From a virus, in the IMG/VR virus record IMGVR_UViG_3300050821_003619, positions 45,251 through 109,250 of that record: a stretch of 64,000 nt of DNA; one strand, given 5' to 3'. Position 1 is the first letter of the stretch. Each line of letters starts with the position of its first letter. Under the pieces are notes generated by a model that saw only the letters and a list, made by a program, of their open reading frames with translations, was not told the DNA's origin and ran no database searches. Below, piece by piece: positions 1 to 46,700 of this stretch. Both the position numbers and the translations under genes were made by a program.

Positions 1-105
1 TACGAACCGCACAACATCGCGGATAAACAGGCAGTCGATGCTCAGGGTGTAATTGAAAATTGGATTTGGTATAATACTTTGTATCGTATGAAAGTTGGAG
101 GTTAG
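1..105 (+). CDS. 3' end of a hypothetical protein (truncated by window edge)
   Basis: Frame 1 is open from base 1 (YEPHNIADKQ...MKVGG) to TAG at 103-105; its end carries the GGAGG SD of the next gene. Confidence 0.6.
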   Translation, partial: YEPHNIADKQAVDAQGVIENWIWYNTLYRMKVGG

Positions 106-107
106 GA

Positions 108-296
108 TTGCCTATTGAAAACCAGAAAGACCTTGTGACCCGTCAAAGGGAAATGAAAGCACGCATGAAAGAACTGAGAAAAGCTGATCCTGACAAATGG
201 CGTAAACAGGAATTAGCTGATGCACGTATTCTAGATGCTAATTTTCCCAAAGACAATGCAGGCCACAGGAGAAGTGCCGACCGCCAATATGCCTAA
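108..296 (+). CDS. Small basic hypothetical protein
   Basis: TTG start 6 nt after GGAGG; 62 aa. Confidence 0.6.
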   Translation: MPIENQKDLVTRQREMKARMKELRKADPDKWRKQELADARILDANFPKDNAGHRRSADRQYA

Positions 297-741
297 AGTA
301 CTTACTGCACCCGAGATGAAGGCACGCTTGTTCAAAAGATTTTGGAATAAGGTGCTTCTCGGGGATGAATGCTGGGAATGGCAAGGCTCCATAAACAACA
401 TGGGCTATGGAAAAATACAAGTACGTATGGACGACGGTTATCATGCAGTGTATGCTCATAGAGTATCTTGGTTTCTTGCTACAGGAGAATGGCCCACAGA
501 ACAAGTTTTGCATCGATGTGACAATACTAGATGTGTTCGCCATGGACATCATTTTCAGGGAACACAAAAAGACAACATGCAGGATGCCTCAGAAAAAGGC
601 AGAACCAGTGGAGGTGGAGCAAATAAAACTCACTGTAAACGTGGCCACAATTTAGACAATGCCTATTTAAATGGAGGCAAAAGACACTGTAGAATATGTC
701 GTAGAGATTATAAAAAGCTTAGGAGAATGAGTGAGTCTTGA
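274..741 (+). CDS. HNH homing endonuclease with C-terminal KTHCKRGH Zn motif
   Basis: ECWEWQG...GYG...AHRVSW...VLHRCDNTRCV...H...GTQKDN signature; C-terminal KTHCKRGH...CRIC; GTG at 274 follows AGGAGA (ORF track starts at 235). Confidence 0.88.
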   Translation: MPTANMPKVLTAPEMKARLFKRFWNKVLLGDECWEWQGSINNMGYGKIQVRMDDGYHAVYAHRVSWFLATGEWPTEQVLHRCDNTRCVRHGHHFQGTQKDNMQDASEKGRTSGGGANKTHCKRGHNLDNAYLNGGKRHCRICRRDYKKLRRMSES

Positions 742-2119
742 TGCATTTTTAGAAAAGTTTCATAAAGAAGAAACTTTTGATACAGAGCAGAACATGGCTT
801 ACTGTATGGCTGATGCTCCAAATGCATTAGCAACATTCATGTCTAAGTTTAGTCCAAACATGGAATCGATATGGTTCTATGAGGGTAAATGCGAGATCAG
901 ATTCGATAAAGAATCACATAGATATTACAGAGTTGAAGAACTAGGAAACCTAACTCTTCTACGTGGAGTAACAAACGTAGTCCACATCATAGATCGTTCC
1001 ATGGCTCTTATGCCGTGGGCAGCTAAGAAGGTGGCCGAGAAGATGATTAGGTTGGTAGCCACTGAAACAAGAGATGGGCAAATTTATCTTGTACCGATGA
1101 CTCTGGCGTACTTCACTCAGCTTGTTATGGAAGCTAAGAAGGCTCCTAACGAAGAGAAGGAAGAAGCAGGCGACATTGGGCACATGGCCCATGCATGCTT
1201 GGAAGATTCAATCCGGCATGCATTGGATCACACCGAAGACCACATTGTTCGTGAACTAAAAAATCTCCCCACAGATGAGAAGGCTGCAACCGCAGCTAAC
1301 TCAGCATTCAATTGGATGAAGGCGCATAATGTGCGCTGGATTGAAACAGAAGGGAAGATATATTCTAAACAGTATGGCTACGCGGGAACAATGGATGGCC
1401 TTGCTTACGTTGACTCTTGTACTGATCGTACATGTTGTCGTAGTAGTTTCACTAATCATCTCAGCCTTATCGATTGGAAATCTTCGAACTATCTTTATAT
1501 CGAGTTTCTTTTCCAGACTGCGAGCTATCAGCACGCGAAGCAAGAAGAATCTGGTATCAAGATTGAGGATCGCTGGGTTCTAAGGCTAGGAAAGAATGAA
1601 GACGAAGCTGGTAAATTCGAACCATGGTATATGGGACCGGAGGACTTCCAGCAAGACTTAGACGGTTTCTTAGCTTGTTTACGTCTGGTAGAATTGGTTG
1701 ACTCAGTTACAGATCGCATGAAGAACCAAAAAGCTCTTATTAAAGGAGTAAAGAAGGAAGTACGAGAGACTCAGAAAGCAATAGAGAAGGCAGAAGAAAA
1801 GCTGGAGAAAGCCCGAGCCAAAGCCTTTAAGAAGACTCAGAGAGAAGCCGAAAAGGAGTTGGCTAATAAGAAAGCCGAAGAGGATAAGAACGCTCTGCGT
1901 ATTGCTCGTGCTGCTGAGAAGGCACGCGTTAAAGAAGAAGCCCGAGCACTCAGGGAAACAGTTAAGCAAACCAACGCGGTAGCAAGCAAAACTATCCCAG
2001 AGCCTAAACCTGTAGAGATACCAGCAATTGTTAGTGCACGTCCCAAATCGGGATGGGCAGAGTTTGAAGAAGAAACCGTAGTTAAACCAAGAGTATTTAC
2101 TATACCGGAGGAAGATTGA
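731..2119 (+). CDS. PD-(D/E)XK (Cas4/RecB-like) phage exonuclease with long charged helical C-terminus
   Basis: HRYY, GVTNV, GHMAH, ETE, YAGTMDG, IDWKSS and QTASY motifs; K/E/A-rich coiled coil from ~aa 330. Confidence 0.8.
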   Translation: MSLDAFLEKFHKEETFDTEQNMAYCMADAPNALATFMSKFSPNMESIWFYEGKCEIRFDKESHRYYRVEELGNLTLLRGVTNVVHIIDRSMALMPWAAKKVAEKMIRLVATETRDGQIYLVPMTLAYFTQLVMEAKKAPNEEKEEAGDIGHMAHACLEDSIRHALDHTEDHIVRELKNLPTDEKAATAANSAFNWMKAHNVRWIETEGKIYSKQYGYAGTMDGLAYVDSCTDRTCCRSSFTNHLSLIDWKSSNYLYIEFLFQTASYQHAKQEESGIKIEDRWVLRLGKNEDEAGKFEPWYMGPEDFQQDLDGFLACLRLVELVDSVTDRMKNQKALIKGVKKEVRETQKAIEKAEEKLEKARAKAFKKTQREAEKELANKKAEEDKNALRIARAAEKARVKEEARALRETVKQTNAVASKTIPEPKPVEIPAIVSARPKSGWAEFEEETVVKPRVFTIPEED

Positions 2120-3090
2120 GCGATAGCAACGAATCATTAACCGTTCTGAACAATCAGAATGCGCTGGCTGTAGGTGGAGTAGGCCTCGGGTCAGCTTTGT
2201 TCAAGGCACGTCCTAGCACTATTCAGTTGGTTCCAAAGTCAACACGTCAAGAGGGAGCTATCCCCGGCACGTTCCGCAATATCACCACCGGCGAACGCCT
2301 AGGGGTTGCCGATGAAAACGGAAACATCGTTAAGGATGAAATCCGAGTAGTCATGCTGGCTGTGCCTCAAGAGAAGCGTGAGTATTACTTGAACGATGGC
2401 AAGACGTACAGCAAGGACATGAAGGAATGCTTCAGCGTAAACAACGTGACACCTCACGACCGCGCTAAGAATCCTCCTGCTATGTACTGCGCTACTTGCC
2501 CTATGGGGGATGTTAACTGGGAGAAGTGGCGTAAGGGTGGAAAGAATCCTAAGGACCTGCCACCTTGCCAGATGTATTACGGTTTGTTTCTGGCCGAACG
2601 CAATACGCAGACACCCTACAACATCGACGTGAAGGGCAAAAGCGTAGGGCCATTTAAGCAGGCCATGGAAACTCAGATGGCTGGTCTGTTGGCAAAGATT
2701 CAAACCAACGTAGTCATGCTGAACAAAAGCCGTGGTTATAAGCTGAATAAAACTTCAGGACAGTTTGAATTCGTTGGGTTACCTGAAGGTGTAACGGAGA
2801 AAGTTGCACCAGAACCAATGCCTAATATCTTTGACATCGTATTCACGATCTACTCTAACCGTAAGGACGGAGATATTGTGATGGGCTTCAAAGATTTTGC
2901 TCGCATGAAGGCAGAGGATCGTGCAGAGTTTGGCGACTTGTACAACGAATTCCTACAGCGTAAGCAGCAGGCAGCACAGGTTGCACAAGCTGAGCCTGAG
3001 GAAAGTGAAGAAGCACAAGGCAACGCGGCAGTAACTGAAGCAGTAGATGGGGAATACGTAGACACTAACGACGAACCCATCACAATTTAA
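2116..3090 (+). CDS. Putative ssDNA-binding/annealing protein (Cys-containing, acidic tail)
   Basis: Coupled to the exonuclease; CFS...CATCP...PPC pattern; acidic C-terminus (EPEESEE...DTNDEPITI). Confidence 0.6.
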   Translation: MSDSNESLTVLNNQNALAVGGVGLGSALFKARPSTIQLVPKSTRQEGAIPGTFRNITTGERLGVADENGNIVKDEIRVVMLAVPQEKREYYLNDGKTYSKDMKECFSVNNVTPHDRAKNPPAMYCATCPMGDVNWEKWRKGGKNPKDLPPCQMYYGLFLAERNTQTPYNIDVKGKSVGPFKQAMETQMAGLLAKIQTNVVMLNKSRGYKLNKTSGQFEFVGLPEGVTEKVAPEPMPNIFDIVFTIYSNRKDGDIVMGFKDFARMKAEDRAEFGDLYNEFLQRKQQAAQVAQAEPEESEEAQGNAAVTEAVDGEYVDTNDEPITI

Positions 3091-3100
3091 AGGAGAATAC

Positions 3101-3442
3101 ATGAAAGCTTTGTTCACCACATTTGTACTTGCCCTCGCACTGCTGGCCTCGGCTCACACAGCCACGGCTAATGATGACGAGAACGTGTATGTTAACGGAC
3201 AGTATCTCAGTAGCGACGGAGACAACTACGGAATGACCTTCTCCGTAAGCAGTTCTGTTCCTGAGCCTACATGCGTGTTTCCATATGTCACCAGCAGTGA
3301 CAATGTGGTGGGCGGGGTTGGTAGCCCTTACCAACTCGGAGCTAATGAGCAGAACGTGCACATTGGTCAGTTTAACCGAGCCGATAGCTCTCGTGGCTGG
3401 TCGGTTCAAGTGAGTGCACGTTGGCATCGTGGAGGCTGCTAG
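3101..3442 (+). CDS. Secreted hypothetical protein
   Basis: AGGAG SD; Sec signal MKALFTTFVLALALLASAHTATA. Confidence 0.75.
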   Translation: MKALFTTFVLALALLASAHTATANDDENVYVNGQYLSSDGDNYGMTFSVSSSVPEPTCVFPYVTSSDNVVGGVGSPYQLGANEQNVHIGQFNRADSSRGWSVQVSARWHRGGC

Positions 3443-3606
3443 TGCTCAAGTGGATTCGTAGTTTAGGATTCTGGGGCATGTTCGTTGGGGCAATGGGAGC
3501 GCTGAATGCTCTCATTCAGAATGACTGGGGGATCGTAGGGTTAGGTATTGTTTTCGTTTTGTTGTCCTACGGTTGGTACTGGTTATTCGGCAAGTTCACC
3601 ACGTAA
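3442..3606 (+). CDS. Small 2-TM membrane protein
   Basis: GTG at 3442 after GGAGG; two hydrophobic segments. Confidence 0.6.
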   Translation: MLKWIRSLGFWGMFVGAMGALNALIQNDWGIVGLGIVFVLLSYGWYWLFGKFTT

Positions 3607-3888
3607 AGTTACGCACGTATGAGGTAATCGCAAAGCCTATCGGACACGGGTTCGACTCCCGTCGCCTCCACCAAGCTACTCACGATGAATACCGGCTGAC
3701 CCCAGCGTCTAGCGCGGAATCACGGCTAGGCCCGAGACGAATGCATCGTTATCGGGAAAGTCGAGGATAATTCTCGTCTGGGTGAGTAGCTTAATGGGGG
3801 CGTCACGGCTTCGACGGTGGGAACTGAGGGATTTACTGACGTGCCGTTATCGTACGCCGTTCGTTATACGGAGTGCAAAAACACAAAT

Positions 3889-3969
3889 GCTAAGACTAAC
3901 AAGTCTCGCAAGGCCTATGGCATGTTCTTCGGTGGAAACACTGTTGGACAGCTTTCTGTAGCTGCCTAA
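3889..3969 (+). other. tmRNA tag reading frame (A)AKTNKSRKAYGMFFGGNTVGQLSVAA*
   Basis: Resume codon GCT after A-rich AAAAACACAAAT; 26 codons to TAA; C-terminal VAA degron. Confidence 0.8.
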
Positions 3970-3975
3970 AAGGGT

Positions 3976-3996
3976 GGGAGCCTCACAAGGGCTCCC
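3976..3996 (+). terminator. Hairpin at the 3' end of the tmRNA coding piece
   Basis: GGGAGCC-TCACAAG-GGCTCCC; only a weak pyrimidine tail. Confidence 0.5.
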
Positions 3997-4029
3997 TTCC
4001 GATATCCTCCCCAACAAACAGGAGAAACC

Positions 4030-4488
4030 ATGAAGAAGCTTTTCGCTGCTGTACTGATGCTGGCGTCAGCATTTGCTGCTGCCCAAACCACAAACAATTT
4101 TACTTTTGGTCCGCGCCCTACCATCACTAACATTGCTCCGATGACTTCGGTTAACGGTGTTTCAGTCGATCCTGCTACCAATAGCACTGTAGATTTTCAG
4201 ACTTCGGACTTCAGCACTGCTCCGGGGTTCGCGTTGTATTTCCCTTACAGCATCGACGGTACCAGTGGTATTCTTGAAGGAGGAACGATTCAGTATGGTG
4301 TACGCGTTATTACCGGCGTGAACACTGCTACTCAGTCTGATACGTTCTCTTTCTTCGGTGGAGAATTTACCGGCACTGTAATTGAAACCTTCACCTTCGC
4401 TACGCAGCGTGTGTGCGGTGGTCGTAGTTGCCACAACGTGACGGTGTATACCAGCACGGGTGGAACGGGAACGTTGACAAAGAACTAA
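4030..4488 (+). CDS. Secreted Thr/Gly-rich beta protein
   Basis: AGGAG SD; signal MKKLFAAVLMLASAFAAA; CGGRSC loop near the C-terminus. Confidence 0.75.
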   Translation: MKKLFAAVLMLASAFAAAQTTNNFTFGPRPTITNIAPMTSVNGVSVDPATNSTVDFQTSDFSTAPGFALYFPYSIDGTSGILEGGTIQYGVRVITGVNTATQSDTFSFFGGEFTGTVIETFTFATQRVCGGRSCHNVTVYTSTGGTGTLTKN

Positions 4489-4497
4489 GGGACAAAC

Positions 4498-4968
4498 ATG
4501 ACAAAGCAGGCTCAGAGCACGGGGGCTTCAAATGAAGCCCCTTACGAAGGTTCGTTGGAAGAAGTATTTGATAATCCTCCTACTCAAGAAGAAATTGAAG
4601 AGAATTCGCGCCCTATTGAAGAGATCGCTGAGGAAGAAGCACCTGTAAATGCAGGTACCATTACGTACGGTATCGATAGTCTAGCTCGCATAGAGATTAC
4701 TAAGCTGGCTCTATTAGCGCAGAATATTCTTGCACGACAAGAAAATGCACCGTCTACCACGACCGGCAGCTTGAACATTTTAGGGTTCGACTTTAACGTC
4801 CGTGTACTTCCTAAACAAGATGCTATGATTGGTGGAGAAAACAAAATTGGCCGACCGGGGCTGGTATTGGAAGTGAATGATGGTGACCGCACCTACGCTG
4901 TGGCTAAGCTGGAGTGGGATCACAACAAGCAAGTGTATGTACTATTCGCAGGCAAAGGAGTAAACTAA
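4498..4968 (+). CDS. Hypothetical protein with acidic N-terminus
   Basis: Tight operon spacing; 156 aa. Confidence 0.7.
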   Translation: MTKQAQSTGASNEAPYEGSLEEVFDNPPTQEEIEENSRPIEEIAEEEAPVNAGTITYGIDSLARIEITKLALLAQNILARQENAPSTTTGSLNILGFDFNVRVLPKQDAMIGGENKIGRPGLVLEVNDGDRTYAVAKLEWDHNKQVYVLFAGKGVN

Positions 4969-5199
4969 ATGAACAAGTTTTTTGAAGCTATTGGATTGGG
5001 AATAGTGGCTTTTGTTGTAGTGATTGGCTTGTCTTTGTTGCTGGCTTTTCCTACCAAGTGGGCAATCAACTATGTGGTTAACCCAACGTTGTTGGCAACT
5101 GTTTTCACTACCGGCCACTTTAGTGTATGGCACGCATGGGCATTAAACTTCTTGGCAAGCTCGCTCGTTAAGTCTACAAACACAGGGAGCACGAAGTAG
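4969..5199 (+). CDS. Small membrane protein
   Basis: AGGAG SD; hydrophobic; abuts both neighbours. Confidence 0.7.
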   Translation: MNKFFEAIGLGIVAFVVVIGLSLLLAFPTKWAINYVVNPTLLATVFTTGHFSVWHAWALNFLASSLVKSTNTGSTK

Positions 5200-5463
5200 A
5201 TGGTCACTGACACCGAATTTATCAATGCATTACGCAGCGCAAAAATGAGCACAGTAGAACTGGCTGATGGATTAGGTGTCAGTCAACCTACCATCCGTAG
5301 ATGGCGCAACGGTCGTAACCTGCCATATTCACCTATGAGACCGGCCATTATGCTGTTTCTTGGCAAAGTTGATAAACGCAGGGCTGGAGTAGTAAACCAG
5401 ATTCAACGTACAGCATTCGATGCTTACGAAGGATTAAACGGAAGGATGCCCACTAAGTTGTAG
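5200..5463 (+). CDS. XRE/Cro-family HTH regulator
   Basis: MSTVELADGLGVSQPTIRRWRNGRNLP HTH signature. Confidence 0.85.
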   Translation: MVTDTEFINALRSAKMSTVELADGLGVSQPTIRRWRNGRNLPYSPMRPAIMLFLGKVDKRRAGVVNQIQRTAFDAYEGLNGRMPTKL

Positions 5464-5472
5464 GAGAGATAA

Positions 5473-6282
5473 GTGCAAGATGATCACAAGTATGGTCCCG
5501 GTGAATGGGTAGTTCACAAAGAAAGAAGTGCACCGGGTGGGTTGAAAGACATAGTACTTCAAGATTTAATACCAACAACAGCAATACATGGGGAGGTAGT
5601 AGCTGGCCGAGCTACTACAGTACGTAAGGACCTTCAACGCCTTACGGCAAACATGCAACAAGATACATTTACGTTGGCAGACCTTTTCTATGAAGCCCAA
5701 GCGAACGCGTACTACCTACAGTGGGGGTTCGACAGCTTAGGTGACTACGCCACTAAGGAGCTAGGTATTAAGGAGCGCAAAGCCCAATACCTTGCTCGCA
5801 TAGTTAAGGTCTGCCGTGATGTTGGAGTGACCCGTAAGAACTACGAACCGGCAGGCATATCGAAGTTGAGAGAGATCACCACACTTGATCCTGACGGCTT
5901 CTATTTCGACAAAGAGAAGAACCAGAATTTTCCTCTAGATGAGATCATAGTTGATCTTATTCTTGATGCTCCTGACATGACAATGCAGCAAGTCAAAGAC
6001 AAGGTTGATCTGCTTAAAGGTCAAGTAGGGGAAGATAGGCAAGTCATCAGAAGCTTTGGTTGCACACAATCTTGCTGGACAAACGTCATCAGTAAAGCTT
6101 TAGAACTAGCAGCACGTAAGCTTGGCTCTGCTGGAAGAGATGAGTCAGGTAACGCAATAGAATTTTCTGAGGGTGCGAAGTGGGAGATAATTTGCGTTTC
6201 CTTCTTACAGGATCAGAACAACTATATAGAAGACCACGGAGAAACTAATGAAGACAATAGCGACCCTTCTATTACTGTGTAG
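5473..6282 (+). CDS. Hypothetical phage DNA-associated protein
   Basis: AGGAG SD, GTG start; YLQWGFDSLGDYATKELGI...AQYLARI helical motif recurrent in phage DNA-binding proteins. Confidence 0.65.
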   Translation: MQDDHKYGPGEWVVHKERSAPGGLKDIVLQDLIPTTAIHGEVVAGRATTVRKDLQRLTANMQQDTFTLADLFYEAQANAYYLQWGFDSLGDYATKELGIKERKAQYLARIVKVCRDVGVTRKNYEPAGISKLREITTLDPDGFYFDKEKNQNFPLDEIIVDLILDAPDMTMQQVKDKVDLLKGQVGEDRQVIRSFGCTQSCWTNVISKALELAARKLGSAGRDESGNAIEFSEGAKWEIICVSFLQDQNNYIEDHGETNEDNSDPSITV

Positions 6283-6487
6283 TCTGTACGGGCATGAGTC
6301 GCGCAACTCTAACCCTTGTGCTCAGATGTGTGGTTGCAAGAAGCAGCACTGGAATGAGTGCTCTGTGTATTGCTTCCAGATGTATAAGAGCGACGGTACA
6401 CCACGCTGCATGACTCAAGAAGAAATGGATGGTTGTTCTAGGTTGTGCTTAGGTAAAGGTCCGGCGAAACATGAAGGTGGAAAATGA
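6248..6487 (+). CDS. Small secreted cysteine-rich protein
   Basis: GGAG SD; short hydrophobic N-terminus; 8 Cys after it, three CxxxC motifs. Confidence 0.6.
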   Translation: MKTIATLLLLCSLYGHESRNSNPCAQMCGCKKQHWNECSVYCFQMYKSDGTPRCMTQEEMDGCSRLCLGKGPAKHEGGK

Positions 6488-6687
6488 AGACAGACGTTAA
6501 CAAAGCTTTATCACAGCTACAGAAACTCTACAATGATGCAGGGCTAGGTTCGTTAGATTTTATCTATCGTAACCACTCGTCATGGATTGCACTAAAATCG
6601 CGTCCCAACAGCTTCATGGACAACAAGAACATTCCGGCGATTGACTATCCTTCAAAGGTGAACATTGAGCCTGAGACTTCCGCCTGA
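6484..6687 (+). CDS. Hypothetical protein
   Basis: ATGA overlap with the upstream gene. Confidence 0.6.
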   Translation: MKTDVNKALSQLQKLYNDAGLGSLDFIYRNHSSWIALKSRPNSFMDNKNIPAIDYPSKVNIEPETSA

Positions 6688-6952
6688 GGAGTACCATGCT
6701 CTGGTTCAGAGCGTACTTGTACGGGATAATTGGAAATGCCGACATTGCAAATCTAGAAACAATCTTCACGCCCATCACATTGTGTTTAGGAGCGAGATGG
6801 GACCTGATGCTTCTGGGAATCTTGTAATACTTTGTTTATATTGCCATGAAGGTGTGCATCAGTATAAGCTGTTTATTGACGAAACGCAGCCGGGTAAAGG
6901 GGCCGACTCAGAGCTTATCTTTACCCGGCAAGATGGATGGAAACCAAAATGA
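6665..6952 (+). CDS. HNH endonuclease (McrA-like, CxxC type)
   Basis: RDNWKCRHC...LHAHHIVFRSEMG...NLVILCLYCH. Confidence 0.9.
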   Translation: MSLRLPPEEYHALVQSVLVRDNWKCRHCKSRNNLHAHHIVFRSEMGPDASGNLVILCLYCHEGVHQYKLFIDETQPGKGADSELIFTRQDGWKPK

Positions 6953-7236
6953 CTACAACATGGTATAGAGTTTCTACGTGGGGAAAACCAAAGATCACTA
7001 CAGTAGAGGTAACCAAAGAAACTGATAAGTACATCACGTATTTACAGCCTAGCTGGGATAACAAACGAATGGACGAACGTAGATCGTCTAAAAGTAATGA
7101 GTTCTGGCCGACCTTCGCTGCAGCACGGCAGGAATTGCTTGTTCGATATAAGCGAGATATGAATCAGGCGCAGATTGAGTACGAAGAAGCCAAAGAGCGC
7201 TTCCACAAAGTATACTTGATGGAGAAGCCGGAATGA
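6949..7236 (+). CDS. Hypothetical protein
   Basis: ATGA overlap; VEVTKETDKYI beta-barrel-like phage pattern. Confidence 0.65.
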   Translation: MTTTWYRVSTWGKPKITTVEVTKETDKYITYLQPSWDNKRMDERRSSKSNEFWPTFAAARQELLVRYKRDMNQAQIEYEEAKERFHKVYLMEKPE

Positions 7237-7337
7237 GTGATGAGTTTGAATTTCCCGAAGTAATAGGTGTTGGACATTTGGTGGCATGATATTCAGCTTA
7301 GGGCTTCTGTTAGAAAAAAGATAAAAAGGAGGATACC

Positions 7338-9170
7338 ATGTTTACTCTGTTTGACTACCAGCAAGAATGTGAACAGGCAGTCATAGACCATAGGAAACAG
7401 GGTATCCTGCAGCAACTGGTTGTGATGGCTACGGGCACAGGGAAGACCGTAGTCTTCTCCAGCATCATTAAGAGAATGCTACCCCTCCTAGGTGGCAAGG
7501 TGCTGGTATTTGCTCACCGTGAAGAGTTAGTTGATCAAGCTATTGACGCAATAAGAGAAATGAATCCCGGCCTTAAGGTCGGCAAGGAGATGGCTAATGA
7601 TTGGGCTGATATTGACTGCGACGTGGTTGTTAGTTGTGTTGCCTCTATTGGCAGGGCTGGGAGTACTAGGCTTACTCGTTTTGGAAGCTTCAATCTCGTT
7701 ATCTGCGATGAAGCGCACCACTCCATCGCGCAAAGCTACCTCAACGTCTTCGAAACCACCGGAGTACTCAAACCGGATTCTAAGGCGTTACTGATTGGTT
7801 TCACCGCTACGCCTAAGCGCCGTAATCTTACGCGTGCCGAGAAGAAAACTGTAACTCTCGATGACGAGCAGATTCTGTCTCTCAAGAGCGTGTATAAAAA
7901 GATTGTATATAGCTTTGACCTTCGCACAGCGGTTAAGAAGGGATGGCTGGCCCCTCCGCGAGGCTTTCGCGTGAAAACGGAGACAAGCCTTGATAATGTC
8001 AAAGTTACTGCCGGGGACTTTCAGCAGGACCAGCTTTCTGAAGCAGTCAACACCCCCGTGCGTAATGCACAAGTGGTCGATGCATGGGAACAATACGGTG
8101 AAGGCCGACAGACTGTGGGTTTTACCGTTGATATCAACCATGCAAAAGACTTGGCAAAAGCTTTCCAGAACCGTGGGCACCGTTTTGAAGCTGTCTGGGG
8201 TAATGACCCTGACCGTTCTGAGAAGCTACGACAACACAAATCCAAACTAATCACCGGCCTGCTAAATGCACAAGTACTAACAGAGGGCTATGACGATTGG
8301 CAAGTTTCGTGTGTAATTAGTGCGGCTCCAACACAAAGCCCTACTAAGTATCCTCAAGAAATTGGGCGTGGCACTCGTCTACAGAAAGGAGCAGGCAACC
8401 TTCTTGAAGCAATTCAGAAAGGGTACGCTCTCTCTAAGGTAGATTGTATTGTGATTGATATCGTTGACAACTATAGGCGCAACACATTGTCCACTCTCCC
8501 GTCCCTTGTTGGGCTCAATCCAGAGTTCGACCTTGGGGGAGAGAGTGCAATTAAAGCCGTAGAGAAACTGGAAGAGTTACAGGAGAAGTATCCCGGCGTA
8601 AACTTTACGCACCTGACTGATCTTAGCAAAGTCAAAGCATATGTAGAGTCTATCGACTTGTTTGCTGATCCATACACAGATGAGATTAAGCAGTTCTCTG
8701 AGTTCACATGGATGCCATTGCAGGACGGTTCGTTTGTTCTGTCTATCCCTGAGGACCAAGAGCTTGTAAAGCAAAAGAGATATTCTCAGTTCAAACACGA
8801 GAAACTTTTTATCCGGTCTAACGAACTGAGTGAATATGAAGTGTGGCACAAGAAGAGCCAGAATGAGAAGAAGCTGATTGAGTTCTCTACTCTGGAAGAG
8901 GCCTTCGCTGAAGCTGATGCTATAATGAAGCGTAGTCCTCGTGTAGCCAACCGGCTAAAGCCGATTACACGTACAGCAGCGTGGCTTGAGTATGCTGCTA
9001 CTCCTGCAGCCAAGAAGTATCTGTCTAAGCTGGCCCGTGGGAAATACGTTAACTGGTGCCTGTGTGATCGATTCGGTAACGCCGGGGAGACCTGCACAGT
9101 GTGCCAGAAACCTATGGGTGTGACGGCTGGGCAAGTAGCAACTGCAATTAATAGATTAAAGGCCAAATAA
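7338..9170 (+). CDS. SF2 DEAH helicase (ResIII/Irc3-like) with C-terminal Cys cluster
   Basis: ATGTGKT Walker A, AHREEL, DEAHH, GFTATP, VLTEGYD, QEIGRGTR; C-terminal CLC...CTVC. Confidence 0.95.
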   Translation: MFTLFDYQQECEQAVIDHRKQGILQQLVVMATGTGKTVVFSSIIKRMLPLLGGKVLVFAHREELVDQAIDAIREMNPGLKVGKEMANDWADIDCDVVVSCVASIGRAGSTRLTRFGSFNLVICDEAHHSIAQSYLNVFETTGVLKPDSKALLIGFTATPKRRNLTRAEKKTVTLDDEQILSLKSVYKKIVYSFDLRTAVKKGWLAPPRGFRVKTETSLDNVKVTAGDFQQDQLSEAVNTPVRNAQVVDAWEQYGEGRQTVGFTVDINHAKDLAKAFQNRGHRFEAVWGNDPDRSEKLRQHKSKLITGLLNAQVLTEGYDDWQVSCVISAAPTQSPTKYPQEIGRGTRLQKGAGNLLEAIQKGYALSKVDCIVIDIVDNYRRNTLSTLPSLVGLNPEFDLGGESAIKAVEKLEELQEKYPGVNFTHLTDLSKVKAYVESIDLFADPYTDEIKQFSEFTWMPLQDGSFVLSIPEDQELVKQKRYSQFKHEKLFIRSNELSEYEVWHKKSQNEKKLIEFSTLEEAFAEADAIMKRSPRVANRLKPITRTAAWLEYAATPAAKKYLSKLARGKYVNWCLCDRFGNAGETCTVCQKPMGVTAGQVATAINRLKAK

Positions 9171-43055: not shown

Positions 43056-43693
43056 TAGTGTTGTACCACGTTTCTTTTTGGTGCAGGTGCAGGACGAGTT
43101 AAAACGTCGCCTAAACCTTTTCCACCTTGTTGACCTGTTGTAGACGCTGTACCGCTACCAGTTGATGGTAGAAGAGACATTTTGCTGGTACCGGTCAATT
43201 GAATTCCTGTTGGATTGCTTAGTCCACCTAGCACTGTTGGTTCTGATGGATCGCTTCCTTGTGTCTGCGGGTAGCTACGCATATAGTACGTTACCGGCGC
43301 ACCGTTATTGTCCAGTGCTGGCAAATGCAAAAATCCTGATCTAGAACCGTTGTGTGGGACTACGTGTGGCTGAGTAAAATTTGGAGAAGTATCGATTTCG
43401 GTGAAATATTGTGTACCCTTGTGCACTTGTTGGTTATGTTCCAACGTCCAATGCAAATGCTCAGACGTAGTAGTTATAATGTTGGTGTTAGAACTAAATG
43501 TTCCTGCTACATTAATGGAATCTACTTTTGGAGGGGTAGGAAATAGTCCCACCGATGACACAGCCGCATTGTTGGCAGTAGTGTTTACAGCTTCAATTAT
43601 TCGGCGTAATATCTTGCCCAAGAATGCATCTTTTTGAGAAAGATATGTTAGTTCCGATCCACCTTCTAATTGCTGGTTTTTACCTTGCGCCAT
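43055..43693 (-). CDS. Hypothetical virion protein
   Basis: GAGGA SD before ATG at 43693; FnIII-like beta region. Confidence 0.65.
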   Translation of the reverse strand: MAQGKNQQLEGGSELTYLSQKDAFLGKILRRIIEAVNTTANNAAVSSVGLFPTPPKVDSINVAGTFSSNTNIITTTSEHLHWTLEHNQQVHKGTQYFTEIDTSPNFTQPHVVPHNGSRSGFLHLPALDNNGAPVTYYMRSYPQTQGSDPSEPTVLGGLSNPTGIQLTGTSKMSLLPSTGSGTASTTGQQGGKGLGDVLTRPAPAPKRNVVQH

Positions 43694-43707
43694 GAGTCCT
43701 CTCAAAT

Positions 43708-43737
43708 TAAATAACAAAGGGACGCCGAAGCGCCCCT
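43708..43737 (-). terminator. Intrinsic terminator after the nozzle gene
   Basis: AGGGGCG-CTTCGG-CGTCCCT-TTGTTATTT. Confidence 0.7.
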
Positions 43738-43745
43738 CTGTAAAG

Positions 43746-46700
43746 TTACGACGATGGGAACCCTATGTTTCCACCACCTGTAGCCGGTAGTGTAGACCAT
43801 GGAGACCCTCTGCCTGTTAACAATGACTTATCCATCTGGAACCATGCTCCAACAGCATTCGTTGAGAATTCTAAGAAAGCTCGTTGAGCCTGTACATTGA
43901 TTGGACGGAAGTAATCGTTTTGTGCAGGGTAGTTAAGCGTGATGCCAACCGGCACCTGATACGGATAACGTGCGTCAAGCGTATTAGGCAAAATACGCAA
44001 AGACATCAGACCTGCACCGTGACCTGTGATTTGCAGCACAGTATACGATTTGTTGTGGAAACCAAATATAGGTAACGTTGCAGCCTTAGCTGCATTAACG
44101 TGCCCATAAGTAGTGTACACACTGTGAATTGCTGCTCCATCATCACTTAACTGGTCGGGGTCTAACTGGTAGACCTTTGAAGATGCTATGCCGTTGCATA
44201 TGAACAGCGGTTGATCTATACCGTTTTGTCTAGTGATGAAATCCATATATGGAGAAGGAATCTGCCATATGGTCCATTTTCTCTTCATATCCACTGCAGC
44301 TAACGTACCAAACATCGTTGTATGCATTTCAGCTTGACTTACCAGTTCCTCGAAAGTACCGAGACCCTGATAGTTCAAACAAAGCATAACGTTCGGGCTA
44401 GTAGGTGTAGGGTTGTATACAGAGTTAGGAAGCCACTTTACAGATGTTGTTTTCTCTCCAGTGATAGGATTGGTGCCTGTAGGCAACGGAATCGCGCAAA
44501 GAATACGCTTATTGATAATGTCGTTACGAAGTACAATCGTGTTACCGGCATTCCAATTGATTGCGTCCCATACCTGATAGATTTCCTGCATCATCTTCTG
44601 TGGTTGCCCACCATTGAAACCAAATATACCCGCACGGCACGCCATCACAGCCCATTCTTCACCAACATCATAAGCGTGGATACCAATGGCACCCACCTTG
44701 TTACTCACCTCGTGTAGGCCCCAGCCTCCGGGTTCGGAGTTAGGATTGTTTTCGGTTGAGTACATGCTTTGTGTCTTCATCAAGAATAGCTGATCATGCA
44801 TTACGAACCCTCCCATAACTGATTGAGAGTTCTCAGGCGTAGTATCTATGATGCCTCCTTGATCGGCAGAGGCGTCAACAGACTCAGGTCGATTAATATA
44901 CGAACCGTAGACTTGAGCCAAGATGTTTGGTGTCTTGGTAGGATAAACTTCCACACGATCTATTTCGACTCCTGCACCTGATGCCAGATTGCTGGCGTAG
45001 ATGCGTAAAAGTAGAGTAGAAGGTACGGAACCCACGATGCTGGCTGCTCCACCTTGGTTTACCGAATTGGTAAACGGAGTGGTTAACAGTGCACCAGAGA
45101 ATACTGCAGTAGAAGTTGTCATGCTTGAGAAAGGCACTACGAACGATCCGTACTGTGTGCTTCCGTCTGACAAATCTACCACCAGATTACCATTAGTGTT
45201 AGCAGAGGTTATACGAGCAGCTATACGCACAGAATAGGTTGTATTCTGAGCAATAATAGGAGTACCAAAACTGTCTTGGTATGCCGTCTGCTGTATCAAT
45301 CCTGCCCCGCTTAAGGTGCTGGCTGATGTGTTATTAATTGCGTACGCAAATCCAGTAACTGTGCTGTTAACCAGTGACCCGGTGAAATCTGGAGCACTCC
45401 AACCAGATGGTTGGTTAGGAACAATGTAGCTATCAAATGACATAGCAACAAAGTTTTGAACCTTGTTAAGCTGCAATCCGTAGAACATACGATTAGCGTA
45501 TGGAACGGCCCAAGCTGAGCTTCCCAGTTCAATAAGGTTAAACAGGTTGTCACCCTGCACGTCAATTTCTCGTGAATTAAGAAGAACTGCATCTGTGAAC
45601 GAGAAAGTAGCACTTTGCGTAGTGTTGTCTCTAATAATGGTTGACTGAGCTAGAGTAGTTGTAACCGTACCAATGGTCTGCGTTACGGGGTTTTCGATAA
45701 CGTAGAAGTTAGCTCCGGGTACACCATTTTGTCCTGCTTCAGTGAACGCTATAGCTCTAGCAATTACATACGAAGGACCAATAGGAATGTTGCTAACCTG
45801 AATGGAGTTGGTTCCTGCTGCCACATTAAACACAATAGGTGTATTTGGGGCGCTTTCGTAACCTGTCTCTGTAATGAAGTAGCACACTGCTTGTCGCGTA
45901 CCAGCGGCAATTTGTGTTGTGCCACCGGGTGTAGTACCGATTACGTTTAAGGTTCCTGTGGTTCCATTTCCATAGATTGGGTTAGTTGTGGTTCCTGTAG
46001 CGTTTGCACCGGGATCGATCAAAAACTGTGTACCATAAACTACGGCTTGACCGTTTTGGGTTACGCTAGAATTTGGCGTAGCTCCAGCAGGTGCAACAAC
46101 AGTAAATGTACCGCTCGATCCAAGAGGCAATGCGCCAGAAGGGGCCACACTCTGTACTACATAGGTTCCATTCAGATCGGTACCAGTGTCTACCAGAGTA
46201 TTTGTGACCTTAACAATTTCTCCTGCCGTAGGTCCTACTCCGGTTGCTACCGTAAACGTGAATGTAACAGTGCTGCCTGATACGTCAACTGCTGAGTTAG
46301 TTATACTCATAGTGCCGCTATTTAAAGGCTGCACAACAGTGAAAGTTTGATTCCATCCTGCTGGAGATTCTCCAGTGATAGTTATCTGGCTTCCTGCAGT
46401 TATATTTGGCACACCGGTTGTAGTGGTTACTACTGCTAGTGAGCGCTCGTATGTCATACCAGCCGTTGAATTGGTCTGGAAGTGTCCCGAAGAGGTAAAG
46501 TTGAACGTAAAATAGTAACGCTCTCCTGATCCACCGGGAGGAATACCGATACCCACGCTGGTTACCTGCCATGTGCCATTAAAGGTACCTGTGCCAGTTA
46601 TATACACATACGTTGGTATGCCTAACTTCATTTGCTCAACCAAGTTGTCGTCACCCGGTATACCGCTTCCGCCAATTGAGGCGTTTGCGTAGTATACGGT

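Follow-up and report, generated by a model that had tools for sequence, protein, structure and literature searches.

A circularly permuted two-piece tmRNA gene conserved in a family of soil phages with probable acidobacterial hosts

tmRNA is the RNA that frees stalled ribosomes. Its two-piece form is classically described from Alphaproteobacteria, some cyanobacteria, some Betaproteobacteria and jakobid mitochondria. The alphaproteobacterial form is represented by the Rfam model RF01849 and has been shown to function in Caulobacter (Keiler et al. 2000, as cited in PMC3985003). Two-piece forms have also been described from phages. Buchholz et al. 2022 (PMC9004378) reported the two-piece ssrA of the OM43 phage Melnitz and noted the form in pelagimyophages and in further phages, most of them marine or aquatic; of the 133 distinct phage tmRNAs that they counted, 53 were two-piece, 50 of them from phages of marine or aquatic origin. 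Of the 97,179 sequences in the tmRNA database, 79 are from phages (PMC11915505). The first-pass annotation of the locus studied here, which was made from the sequence alone, had regarded the well-known phage tmRNAs as one-piece, and this view has been out of date since the two-piece phage forms were published in 2022 (PMC9004378). The earlier phage two-piece tmRNAs came mainly from marine or aquatic phages and were read as copies of alphaproteobacterial genes. Here we describe the same gene form conserved in a family of soil phages, in which the likely host phylum has one-piece tmRNA and the family signature is of the one-piece type.

The window is the whole stretch of DNA that was analysed, 64,000 nucleotides long, and it comprises bases 45,251-109,250 of a complete 109,250-bp virus genome from IMG/VR that has direct terminal repeats. 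ARAGORN called a permuted tmRNA gene at 3607-4002 on the + strand and no other in the 109,250-bp genome, in which there are also 26 tRNA genes. The Rfam model RF04321 (tmRNA_permuted) matched this locus over the full model (positions 1-213); the score was 92.8 bits, where the gathering score is 47, with an E of 1.2e-16. The model of the standard tmRNA, RF00023, gave only two partial matches and these were in swapped order, one of 45.1 bits ending at 3673 and one of 24.6 bits starting at 3796. The contiguous 5'-to-3' gene with pseudoknots 2-4 that makes a standard one-piece tmRNA is not found here. Instead, the acceptor piece comes first and the coding piece second, and they are joined by base pairing in the acceptor stem and P2 (Table 1). 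The elements of alanine identity are present: G3798 opposite T3667, which is the G3.U70 pair of a 7-bp acceptor stem, and the discriminator A followed by CCA. The first-pass annotation had proposed a phage-encoded circularly permuted two-piece tmRNA with its 3' end (T arm, acceptor strand, A and CCA) placed before its 5' end (GGGGGCG), an alanyl acceptor stem with G3.U70, two P2 helices, and a tag ORF ending in VAA and a stop. All of these elements are present in the sequence where it had placed them, and the ARAGORN call, the RF04321 score and the covariation in ten homologues described below bear out the identification. The Rfam search gave no match to a riboswitch.

Table 1. Features of the permuted tmRNA gene, in positions of the window
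Feature	Position	Strand	Basis
Acceptor piece	3607-3673	+	sequence, RF04321 alignment, ARAGORN 3' tRNA domain, covariation
Conserved leader AAGTTA	in acceptor piece	+	family conservation
P2 helix GCACGT / ACGTGC	3613-3618 / 3839-3844	+	sequence, covariation
P2 helix CCTATCG / CGGTGGG	3636-3642 / 3815-3821	+	sequence, covariation
T arm ACGGG/TTCGACT/CCCGT (GGACACGGGTTCGACTCCCGT)	3646-3662	+	sequence
Acceptor 3' strand CGCCTCC	3663-3669	+	sequence
Discriminator A, then encoded CCA	3670, then 3671-3673	+	sequence
Intervening segment, 122 nt	3674-3795	+	fold; stem closure in relatives
Coding piece	3796-4002	+	sequence, RF04321, ARAGORN, family folds, covariation
Acceptor 5' strand GGGGGCG	3796-3802	+	sequence; gives G3.U70
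D-loop-like GGCTTCGAC	in coding piece	+	
PK1 region	3845-3877	+	
PK1 stem 2, GTACGCC (3852-3858) / GGAGTGC (3870-3876), one G.A mismatch	3852-3876	+	by eye
Tag frame, resume codon GCT (3889), 26 codons = AKTNKSRKAYGMFFGGNTVGQLSVAA, stop TAA (3967-3969)	3889-3969	+	ARAGORN
3' hairpin GG..GGGAGCC/GGCTCCC..CC, small internal loop	3972-4000	+	fold, -23.3 kcal/mol

Relatives were found through the gene for a 324-aa protein that lies upstream of the tmRNA gene, at 2116-3090. A search with this protein gave 15 metagenome contigs and one contig from IMG/VR, its single relative there, and in 10 of the 15 metagenome contigs an RF04321 match lies directly downstream of the 324-aa gene. One metagenome contig, L111, and the IMG/VR contig, L108, have the same tmRNA gene, and the covariation alignment is made up of ten distinct syntenic tmRNA genes. 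From this alignment RNAalifold predicted 42 pairs, 28 of them with compensatory changes. We scored the 39 pairs that make up the tRNA-like domain, P2 and the 3' hairpin, and 91.8% of the alignment cells were paired as against 72.6% after shuffling, a value that none of 500 shuffles reached. Sliding the partners lowered the pairing to 36-47% of cells, and both sides had changed in 27 of the 39 pairs. The pairs G1-C, G2-C and G3.U are invariant in all ten homologues, and when the precursors were folded as single sequences each gave the same rod with a T-arm branch. Covariation shows that the pairings that join the two pieces are under selection, far beyond chance. Two search patterns were of no use in extending the family: the PK1 motif common to the window and L108 retrieved the L108 contig only, and the exact 32-nt 3' end is too conserved and matched only standard tmRNAs from a wide range of phyla, along with four viral contigs whose tmRNA genes are one-piece.

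The outer boundaries of the gene were set by conservation in the family, the 5' boundary of the acceptor piece by its onset and the 3' boundary of the coding piece by its end at the ...CCGA block. In nhmmer alignments the acceptor piece is homologous to the stretch of roughly 65 nt that precedes the CCA in standard tmRNAs. The coding piece matches the beginning of a standard tmRNA, about 100 nt with the acceptor strand, the P2 5' strands and PK1, and continues into the tag and one hairpin; pseudoknots 2-4 are missing. The spacer between the two pieces is closed by a 10-bp stem formed by AGCTACTCAC (3674-3683) with GTGAGTAGCT (3782-3791), by which the acceptor helix is extended, and the minimum free energy of its fold is -53.7 kcal/mol with a z of -4.46. 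Inspection by eye gave no ORF longer than 9 codons in these 122 nt. The spacers of nine relatives range from 29 to 135 nt and are unrelated in sequence, and the closing stem is present in every minimum-energy fold. The 3' hairpin has compensatory changes at five of its nine pairs across the family; no T-run follows it and it was not called an intrinsic terminator. PK1 is more variable. Its stem 1 is CGAG/CTCG in most relatives and only CG/CG in the window and in L111. For stem 2 the pairings seen in the family, by hand inspection and with no formal count, are ACGTGGCC/GGACACGT, CTGTGGCC/GGACACAG and CCACGCC/GGAGTGG, and the single G.A mismatch is at the same place in seven of the eight members inspected, with two mismatches in L111. 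PK1 stem 2 thus appears to covary across the phage family; for the window sequence itself the automatic pseudoknot search chose a different pseudoknot. In some relatives the T loop is 5-6 nt long and the CCA is not encoded; together with the 2-bp PK1 stem 1, these features suggest that parts of the phage family may work differently.

The tag frame is also conserved. The window has a resume codon, a stop, and a hydrophobic end, SVAA, between them. All ten homologues have GCN as resume codon, with variation in the third base. Within the closest subclade, whose tags read ATEKPMVM[S/T/A]AAAGR, the differences between aligned codons are mostly synonymous as judged by eye, and in the seven tags that end in AGR the Gly and Arg codons likewise vary synonymously (also by eye). 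Because the codon differences are mostly synonymous, the tag frame of the family is predicted to be translated.

Two cultured phages belong to the wider family. Among 50,697 GenBank phage records the 324-aa protein matched only Tunturi 3 and Tunturi 4, which are cultured phages of Tunturiibacter (Acidobacteriota) from Arctic soil (PMC11924767), and the same two phages gave the best matches to the helicase, which were 39% identical and covered 97-99% of it; after these two, identity fell to 30%. RF04321 matched both genomes, with 63 and 79 bits. ARAGORN called the tmRNA of Tunturi 4, with a 33-residue tag, ANTVTSTIRNVASVRTGFFRSAEPITNRYAVAA. It made no call in Tunturi 3, where by eye the acceptor stem is the same, G3.U included, and a long frame ends in MLAA. 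No tmRNA annotation was present in the stretches viewed of the two records, and the word 'tmRNA' does not occur in the paper on these phages, which gives 'unknown' tRNAs instead (PMC11924767). The host of the window phage is probably an acidobacterium, a prediction that draws on distant kinship only, at 30-39% protein identity to the cultured relatives. The 324-aa protein had no match in 185,579 species genomes and therefore there is no prophage or binned copy by which the host could be named. Two other host markers were rejected: GDP-mannose dehydratase is 59-68% identical to proteins of many phyla and does not discriminate, and a peptide gave a weak match in one of 301 Acidobacteriota genomes.

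If the hosts are Acidobacteriota, then the form of tmRNA in this phylum is relevant. Standard tmRNA genes were found in five named Acidobacteriota genomes and at ten further loci that were inspected, with tags such as ANDNLALAA; tags in this phylum have 8-10 residues and the form ANxxxALAA. A scan of 151 sampled Acidobacteriota genomes with RF04321 gave no true permuted tmRNA. Matches above the cut-off were obtained in five of the 151, and the seven top-scoring loci, these five included, were all found on inspection to contain a standard tmRNA. In four of the five genomes the match is an artefact of a tRNA-Asp directly upstream of a standard tmRNA, a junction that scores 50-58 bits, and the fifth match overlies a standard tmRNA gene; an unpublished genome among the 151 (G029) has a sub-threshold match only, and no conclusion depends on it alone. 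The same artefact is ruled out for the window gene since there is no tRNA upstream and its two pieces pair with each other. The absence of a true permuted gene in the sampled genomes agrees with a published table, which lists 1589 standard and five 'beta-best' permuted tmRNAs in 2144 Acidobacteriota genomes (PMC11915505).

Among the Rfam models of permuted tmRNA, the general one is passed, as described above, whereas the alpha, beta and cyanobacterial models all failed. The window gene reached 44.8 bits on the alpha model RF01849, for which the gathering score is 50, and matched only model positions 40-236; it reached 45.4 bits on the beta model RF01850 (gathering score 84) and 40.3 bits on the cyanobacterial model RF01851 (gathering score 70), on which true cyanobacterial members score 308-310 bits. 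The scores of the window gene on these models are generic because the beta model gives 45-72 bits to true alpha-type genes as well. The 30 permuted genes sampled from Pseudomonadota are all of alpha type, and no beta-type reference sequence turned up in 151 sampled Pseudomonadota. The alpha T-arm signature GGACCCGGGGGC(G/A)G(T/A)(A/G)CCCGG is present in 26 of the 30 and absent from the window, and nearly all of the 30 tags begin with ANDN whereas the window tag begins with AKTNK.

Profiles were then compared in both directions, the phage family against standard, alpha-type and cyano-type tmRNAs and the pieces of the window against standard and alpha-type profiles. With the profile of the phage family, 15 standard tmRNAs of Acidobacteriota had a median of 42.7 bits summed and included the three best matches overall, 30 standard tmRNAs from other phyla had a median of 33.5 bits, cyano-type permuted genes 24 bits and alpha-type permuted genes 7.5 bits, although such scores mirror the evolutionary rate of the target groups as well as descent. 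In the reciprocal comparison the coding and acceptor pieces of the window scored 32.9 and 35.5 bits on the profile of Acidobacteriota standard tmRNAs, 21.5 and 34.5 bits on that of standard tmRNAs from other phyla, and 0 and 12.3 bits on that of alpha-type genes. The margin of Acidobacteriota over other phyla in these scores is modest.

The first-pass annotation had also suggested that the permutation might be independent. A separate permutation is plausible because the clade models fail, the alpha T arm is absent, the sequence resembles that of one-piece tmRNA, and no true permuted gene was found in the Acidobacteriota genomes searched. On the other hand, the L111 gene passes the alpha model, with 60 bits against the gathering score of 50, so that the support for this suggestion is real and not decisive. 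The simplest reading of these comparisons is that the permutation took place separately from the alpha and cyanobacterial lineages, starting from a standard-type tmRNA that was possibly that of the hosts. It is a plausible reading rather than a proven one, and we regard the chances for and against it as about even. A more specific version, which we put forward tentatively and at somewhat under an even chance, is that the two-piece tmRNA arose again inside this phage lineage when a standard ssrA like that of Acidobacteriota was captured and permuted and lost pseudoknots 2-4. A conceivable route, and this is speculation, would be that integration into the tmRNA gene left a duplicated 3' fragment of ssrA and that aberrant excision and deletion followed.

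The main alternative leaves the function unchanged and differs in the origin. It holds that the gene diverged from a two-piece lineage already in existence, either alpha-type or a phage-borne one shared with marine phages, and that it was passed between phages. Two-piece tmRNAs are common in phages (PMC9004378), and the order of acceptor piece, spacer and coding piece together with the loss of pseudoknots 2-4 is as in every known permuted tmRNA (PMC3985003). The L111 gene speaks for this alternative not only by its score on the alpha model but also by the stretch from PK1 to the resume codon that it has in common with the window, which resembles the alpha consensus CCGUU..CGG..CAAAA..AUAA.UGC. 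Against descent of this kind, the window gene stays under all three clade cut-offs, has a canonical T arm in place of the alpha signature, and has pieces that score lower on alpha profiles than on those of Acidobacteriota standard tmRNAs. In addition, a blastn search with the tmRNA gene gave no match in the 50,697 phage records. We therefore consider descent from an existing two-piece lineage rather unlikely, though it deserves to be taken seriously. That the window gene is a functional ssrA in circularly permuted form, belonging to a family of soil phages related to cultured Acidobacteriota phages and most similar to standard one-piece tmRNAs without pseudoknots 2-4, is in our view very likely.

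The tmRNA gene lies between ORFs on the same strand, one ending at 3606 and one starting at 4030. The small upstream ORF abuts the tmRNA gene and its translation looks by eye like a membrane protein, while the downstream gene codes for an apparent signal-peptide protein and has its ribosome binding site and ATG 20-30 nt past the 3' hairpin. HNH endonuclease, exonuclease and helicase genes are among the neighbours. Over positions 1-9000 the counts of sigma-70-like promoters and of intrinsic terminators were not above those in shuffled sequences, and no convincing site adjoins the tmRNA gene. The operon setting without a visible dedicated promoter that had been noted at first reading therefore stands, and since no convincing promoter or terminator is next to the gene, co-transcription followed by RNA processing is the likely route to the RNA. 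The earlier statement that the window has no SmpB gene also holds, and can be extended, for PF01668 is absent from the complete 109-kb genome as well as from the genomes of Tunturi 3 and Tunturi 4. Since the phage has no SmpB, the SmpB, AlaRS, EF-Tu, RNase P and proteases of the host would have to be used, and it would be host SmpB that serves the phage tmRNA.

The comparisons above establish that the gene is conserved and folded; the functional steps that would follow are modelled on known two-piece tmRNAs (PMC3985003, PMC11915505). Transcription would most likely be within a + strand message of the replication module that covers the exonuclease, a Cas4-like protein, small ORFs, the tmRNA, the secreted protein and the helicase. 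By analogy with known two-piece tmRNAs, RNase P would cut 5' of G3796, the 3' end would be trimmed to the encoded CCA at 3673, and further cuts would be made near 3607 and past the hairpin near 4000. The 122-nt stem-closed spacer would be thrown away on maturation. The mature RNA would then consist of some 67 nt of acceptor piece and some 205 nt of coding piece, which the 7 bp of the acceptor stem together with roughly 20 bp of P2 would keep joined. Host AlaRS would charge this RNA by way of the invariant G3.U70, and host SmpB and EF-Tu would carry it to ribosomes stalled on broken messages, where translation would restart at GCU 3889 and add the 26-residue tag. VAA is a typical protease-recognition end. 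The benefit to the phage would be a continued supply of free ribosomes during the degradation of host and phage messages. The 26 phage tRNA genes are consistent with such a benefit, and so is a gene with a release-factor domain that adjoins the tmRNA gene in the related phage Tunturi 4.

It could be argued that the RNA does not rescue or tag at all and is a decoy that occupies host SmpB, AlaRS or ribosomes and so blocks trans-translation by the host. Action of this kind has been reported for an RNA of mycobacteriophage DS6A that is tmRNA-like but has no tag (cited in PMC11915505). A phage without its own SmpB, with a weak PK1 stem 1 and, in its family, with tags unlike the ANxxxALAA tags of the host phylum would be compatible with a decoy. 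Against this, all ten homologues retain a complete tag frame that opens at a GCN resume codon and closes with a stop, and the mostly synonymous differences between tag codons (judged by eye) are expected only under translation. We think that a decoy role is improbable. It is far less probable still that the gene is non-functional, whether as the remnant of an integration event in a host tmRNA gene, for which ssrA fragments known in prophages (PMC9004378) give a precedent, or as a model artefact made of a tRNA-like 3' half beside a tmRNA 5' half, like the RF04321 false positives in Acidobacteriota, since the genome is complete with terminal repeats, ARAGORN found no tRNA upstream, the covariation of the inter-piece helices across ten phages contradicts it, and the gene is retained in two cultured phages.

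These findings bear on how often and by what route tmRNA genes become permuted, and on whether the type of ssrA in a phage reveals its past hosts. If a new permutation did take place within the phage lineage, then phages would have the permuted form because it is favoured there in itself, rather than through inheritance from hosts that carry it, and arguments for host switches from the ssrA type of a phage would be weakened. Tunturi 3 and Tunturi 4 and their Tunturiibacter hosts are in culture, which makes processing, charging, tagging and fitness tractable to measurement. We know of no direct measurement of these for any two-piece phage tmRNA. What makes the present locus valuable is this cultured system and the evidence that bears on the way tmRNA genes become permuted, not the mere existence of a phage two-piece tmRNA.

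Among the closest known systems are the phage tmRNAs of the Melnitz type. These and the window gene are both permuted ssrA genes of large lytic-type phages, both lie within an operon, and the role proposed for both is to keep the hijacked translation apparatus running. The Melnitz gene, however, is reported to be of alphaproteobacterial type and lies beside a glutamine riboswitch (PMC9004378), whereas the window gene fails the alpha model and has no riboswitch match; it also differs from Melnitz-type genes in its canonical T arm, in being from soil or peat phages, and in a likely host phylum with one-piece tmRNA. With the alpha two-piece tmRNA itself it has in common the gene order, a spacer closed by a stem between CCA and G1, the placing of the tag between PK1 and a hairpin, the loss of pseudoknots 2-4, and G3.U70. 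The T arm, in contrast, is ACGGG-TTCGACT-CCCGT in the window and CCGGG-GGCGGTA-CCCGG in the alpha two-piece form, and the window tag, besides its AKTNK start in place of ANDN, is twice the alpha length. The beta (RF01850) and cyanobacterial (RF01851) two-piece tmRNAs have the permuted order in common with the window gene, which fails both of their models. The best sequence matches to both pieces are in the one-piece tmRNA (RF00023) of Acidobacteriota, with which the phage relatives also have the PK1 form CCGAG...CTCGTTAAA in common; those genes are contiguous, with pseudoknots 2-4 and tags of 8-10 residues, whereas in the window the order is swapped and the middle is missing. Thus, the phage two-piece tmRNA is already known as a kind, and what is new is the variant, one that fails the clade models, is standard-like, and belongs to phages with probable acidobacterial hosts.

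The module upstream of the tmRNA gene in the window (235-3090) is made up of genes for an HNH endonuclease, an exonuclease, and a 324-aa protein whose homologues in the cultured Tunturiibacter phages Tunturi 3 and Tunturi 4 are annotated as 'Cas4-domain exonuclease' and 'primase'. Both Tunturi phages keep the order found in the window, namely, exonuclease, 324-aa protein, further genes, and helicase. Closer to the tmRNA gene, the stop codon of the upstream ORF falls inside the conserved tmRNA leader (GTAAAGTTA), and the product of this ORF, as read by eye, looks like a small membrane protein. The 152-aa product of the downstream ORF begins with MKKLFAAVLMLASAFAAAQ, which by eye has the appearance of a signal peptide. 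Neither of the two flanking ORFs gave a Pfam or PHROG match.

Coordinates of the tmRNA genes and of their neighbours
Feature	Position	Record	Strand	Remark
HNH endonuclease	235-741	window
Exonuclease	731-2119	window
324-aa protein	2116-3090	window
ORF upstream of tmRNA	3421-3606	window		read by eye
ORF downstream of tmRNA	4030-4488	window		read by eye
RF-1-domain protein gene, then permuted tmRNA gene, Tunturi 4	L225 10527-10874 and 10845-11379	PP885687.1, about 43,400-44,300
Permuted tmRNA gene, Tunturi 3	88172-88396	PP885686.1	(-)
Permuted tmRNA gene, Tunturi 4	43532-43941	PP885687.1	(-)
Standard one-piece tmRNA	L050 261-689	OY970383.1	(-)	1.4-Mb soil MAG

In Tunturi 4 the permuted tmRNA gene is adjoined by a gene for a 115-aa protein that consists of the release-factor RF-1 (GGQ) domain only (Pfam, 42.7 bits against a threshold of 35), and the end of this gene is the start of the tmRNA leader. 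In its domain content this protein may be compared with small ArfB- or PrfH-type rescue factors, and the protein and the permuted tmRNA seem to form a ribosome-rescue module of two parts. No RF-1 domain gene was found in the phage of the window. In the inspected stretches of both Tunturi records the permuted tmRNA genes carry no annotation. The word tmRNA appears nowhere in the Tunturi phage paper, which gives 'unknown' tRNAs for both phages (PMC11924767).

RF04321, the new Rfam model for permuted tmRNA, also gave matches of 50-58 bits, above the gathering score, at five Acidobacteriota loci where the gene present is a standard tmRNA (L211-L215; genomes G126, G102, G090, G063, and G080). At L211-L214 a tRNA-Asp lies directly upstream of the standard tmRNA and because of this we rejected these four matches as permuted tmRNAs and regard them as a false-positive class of the model. 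At L215 there is no tRNA call upstream of the standard tmRNA.

Within the phage family the T loop is shortened to 6 nt in L114, L124, and L125 and to 5 nt in L123, and CCA is not encoded in L118 and L123; the stems still covary in these members. This suggests that the constraints on the tRNA-like domain are relaxed or altered in part of the family.

The 14-residue tags of seven related phage tmRNAs (L113-L116, L118, L124, and L125) end in ...AAAGR or ...ATAGR, whereas the usual tmRNA tags end in ...LAA or ...VAA. The Gly and Arg codons at the tag end vary synonymously among the seven (read by eye), which argues that this odd C-terminus is under selection. The standard one-piece tmRNA of OY970383.1 has a 32-nt 3' end identical to that of the tmRNA in the window, and its tag, which is long at 31 residues, begins with the same AKTNK.
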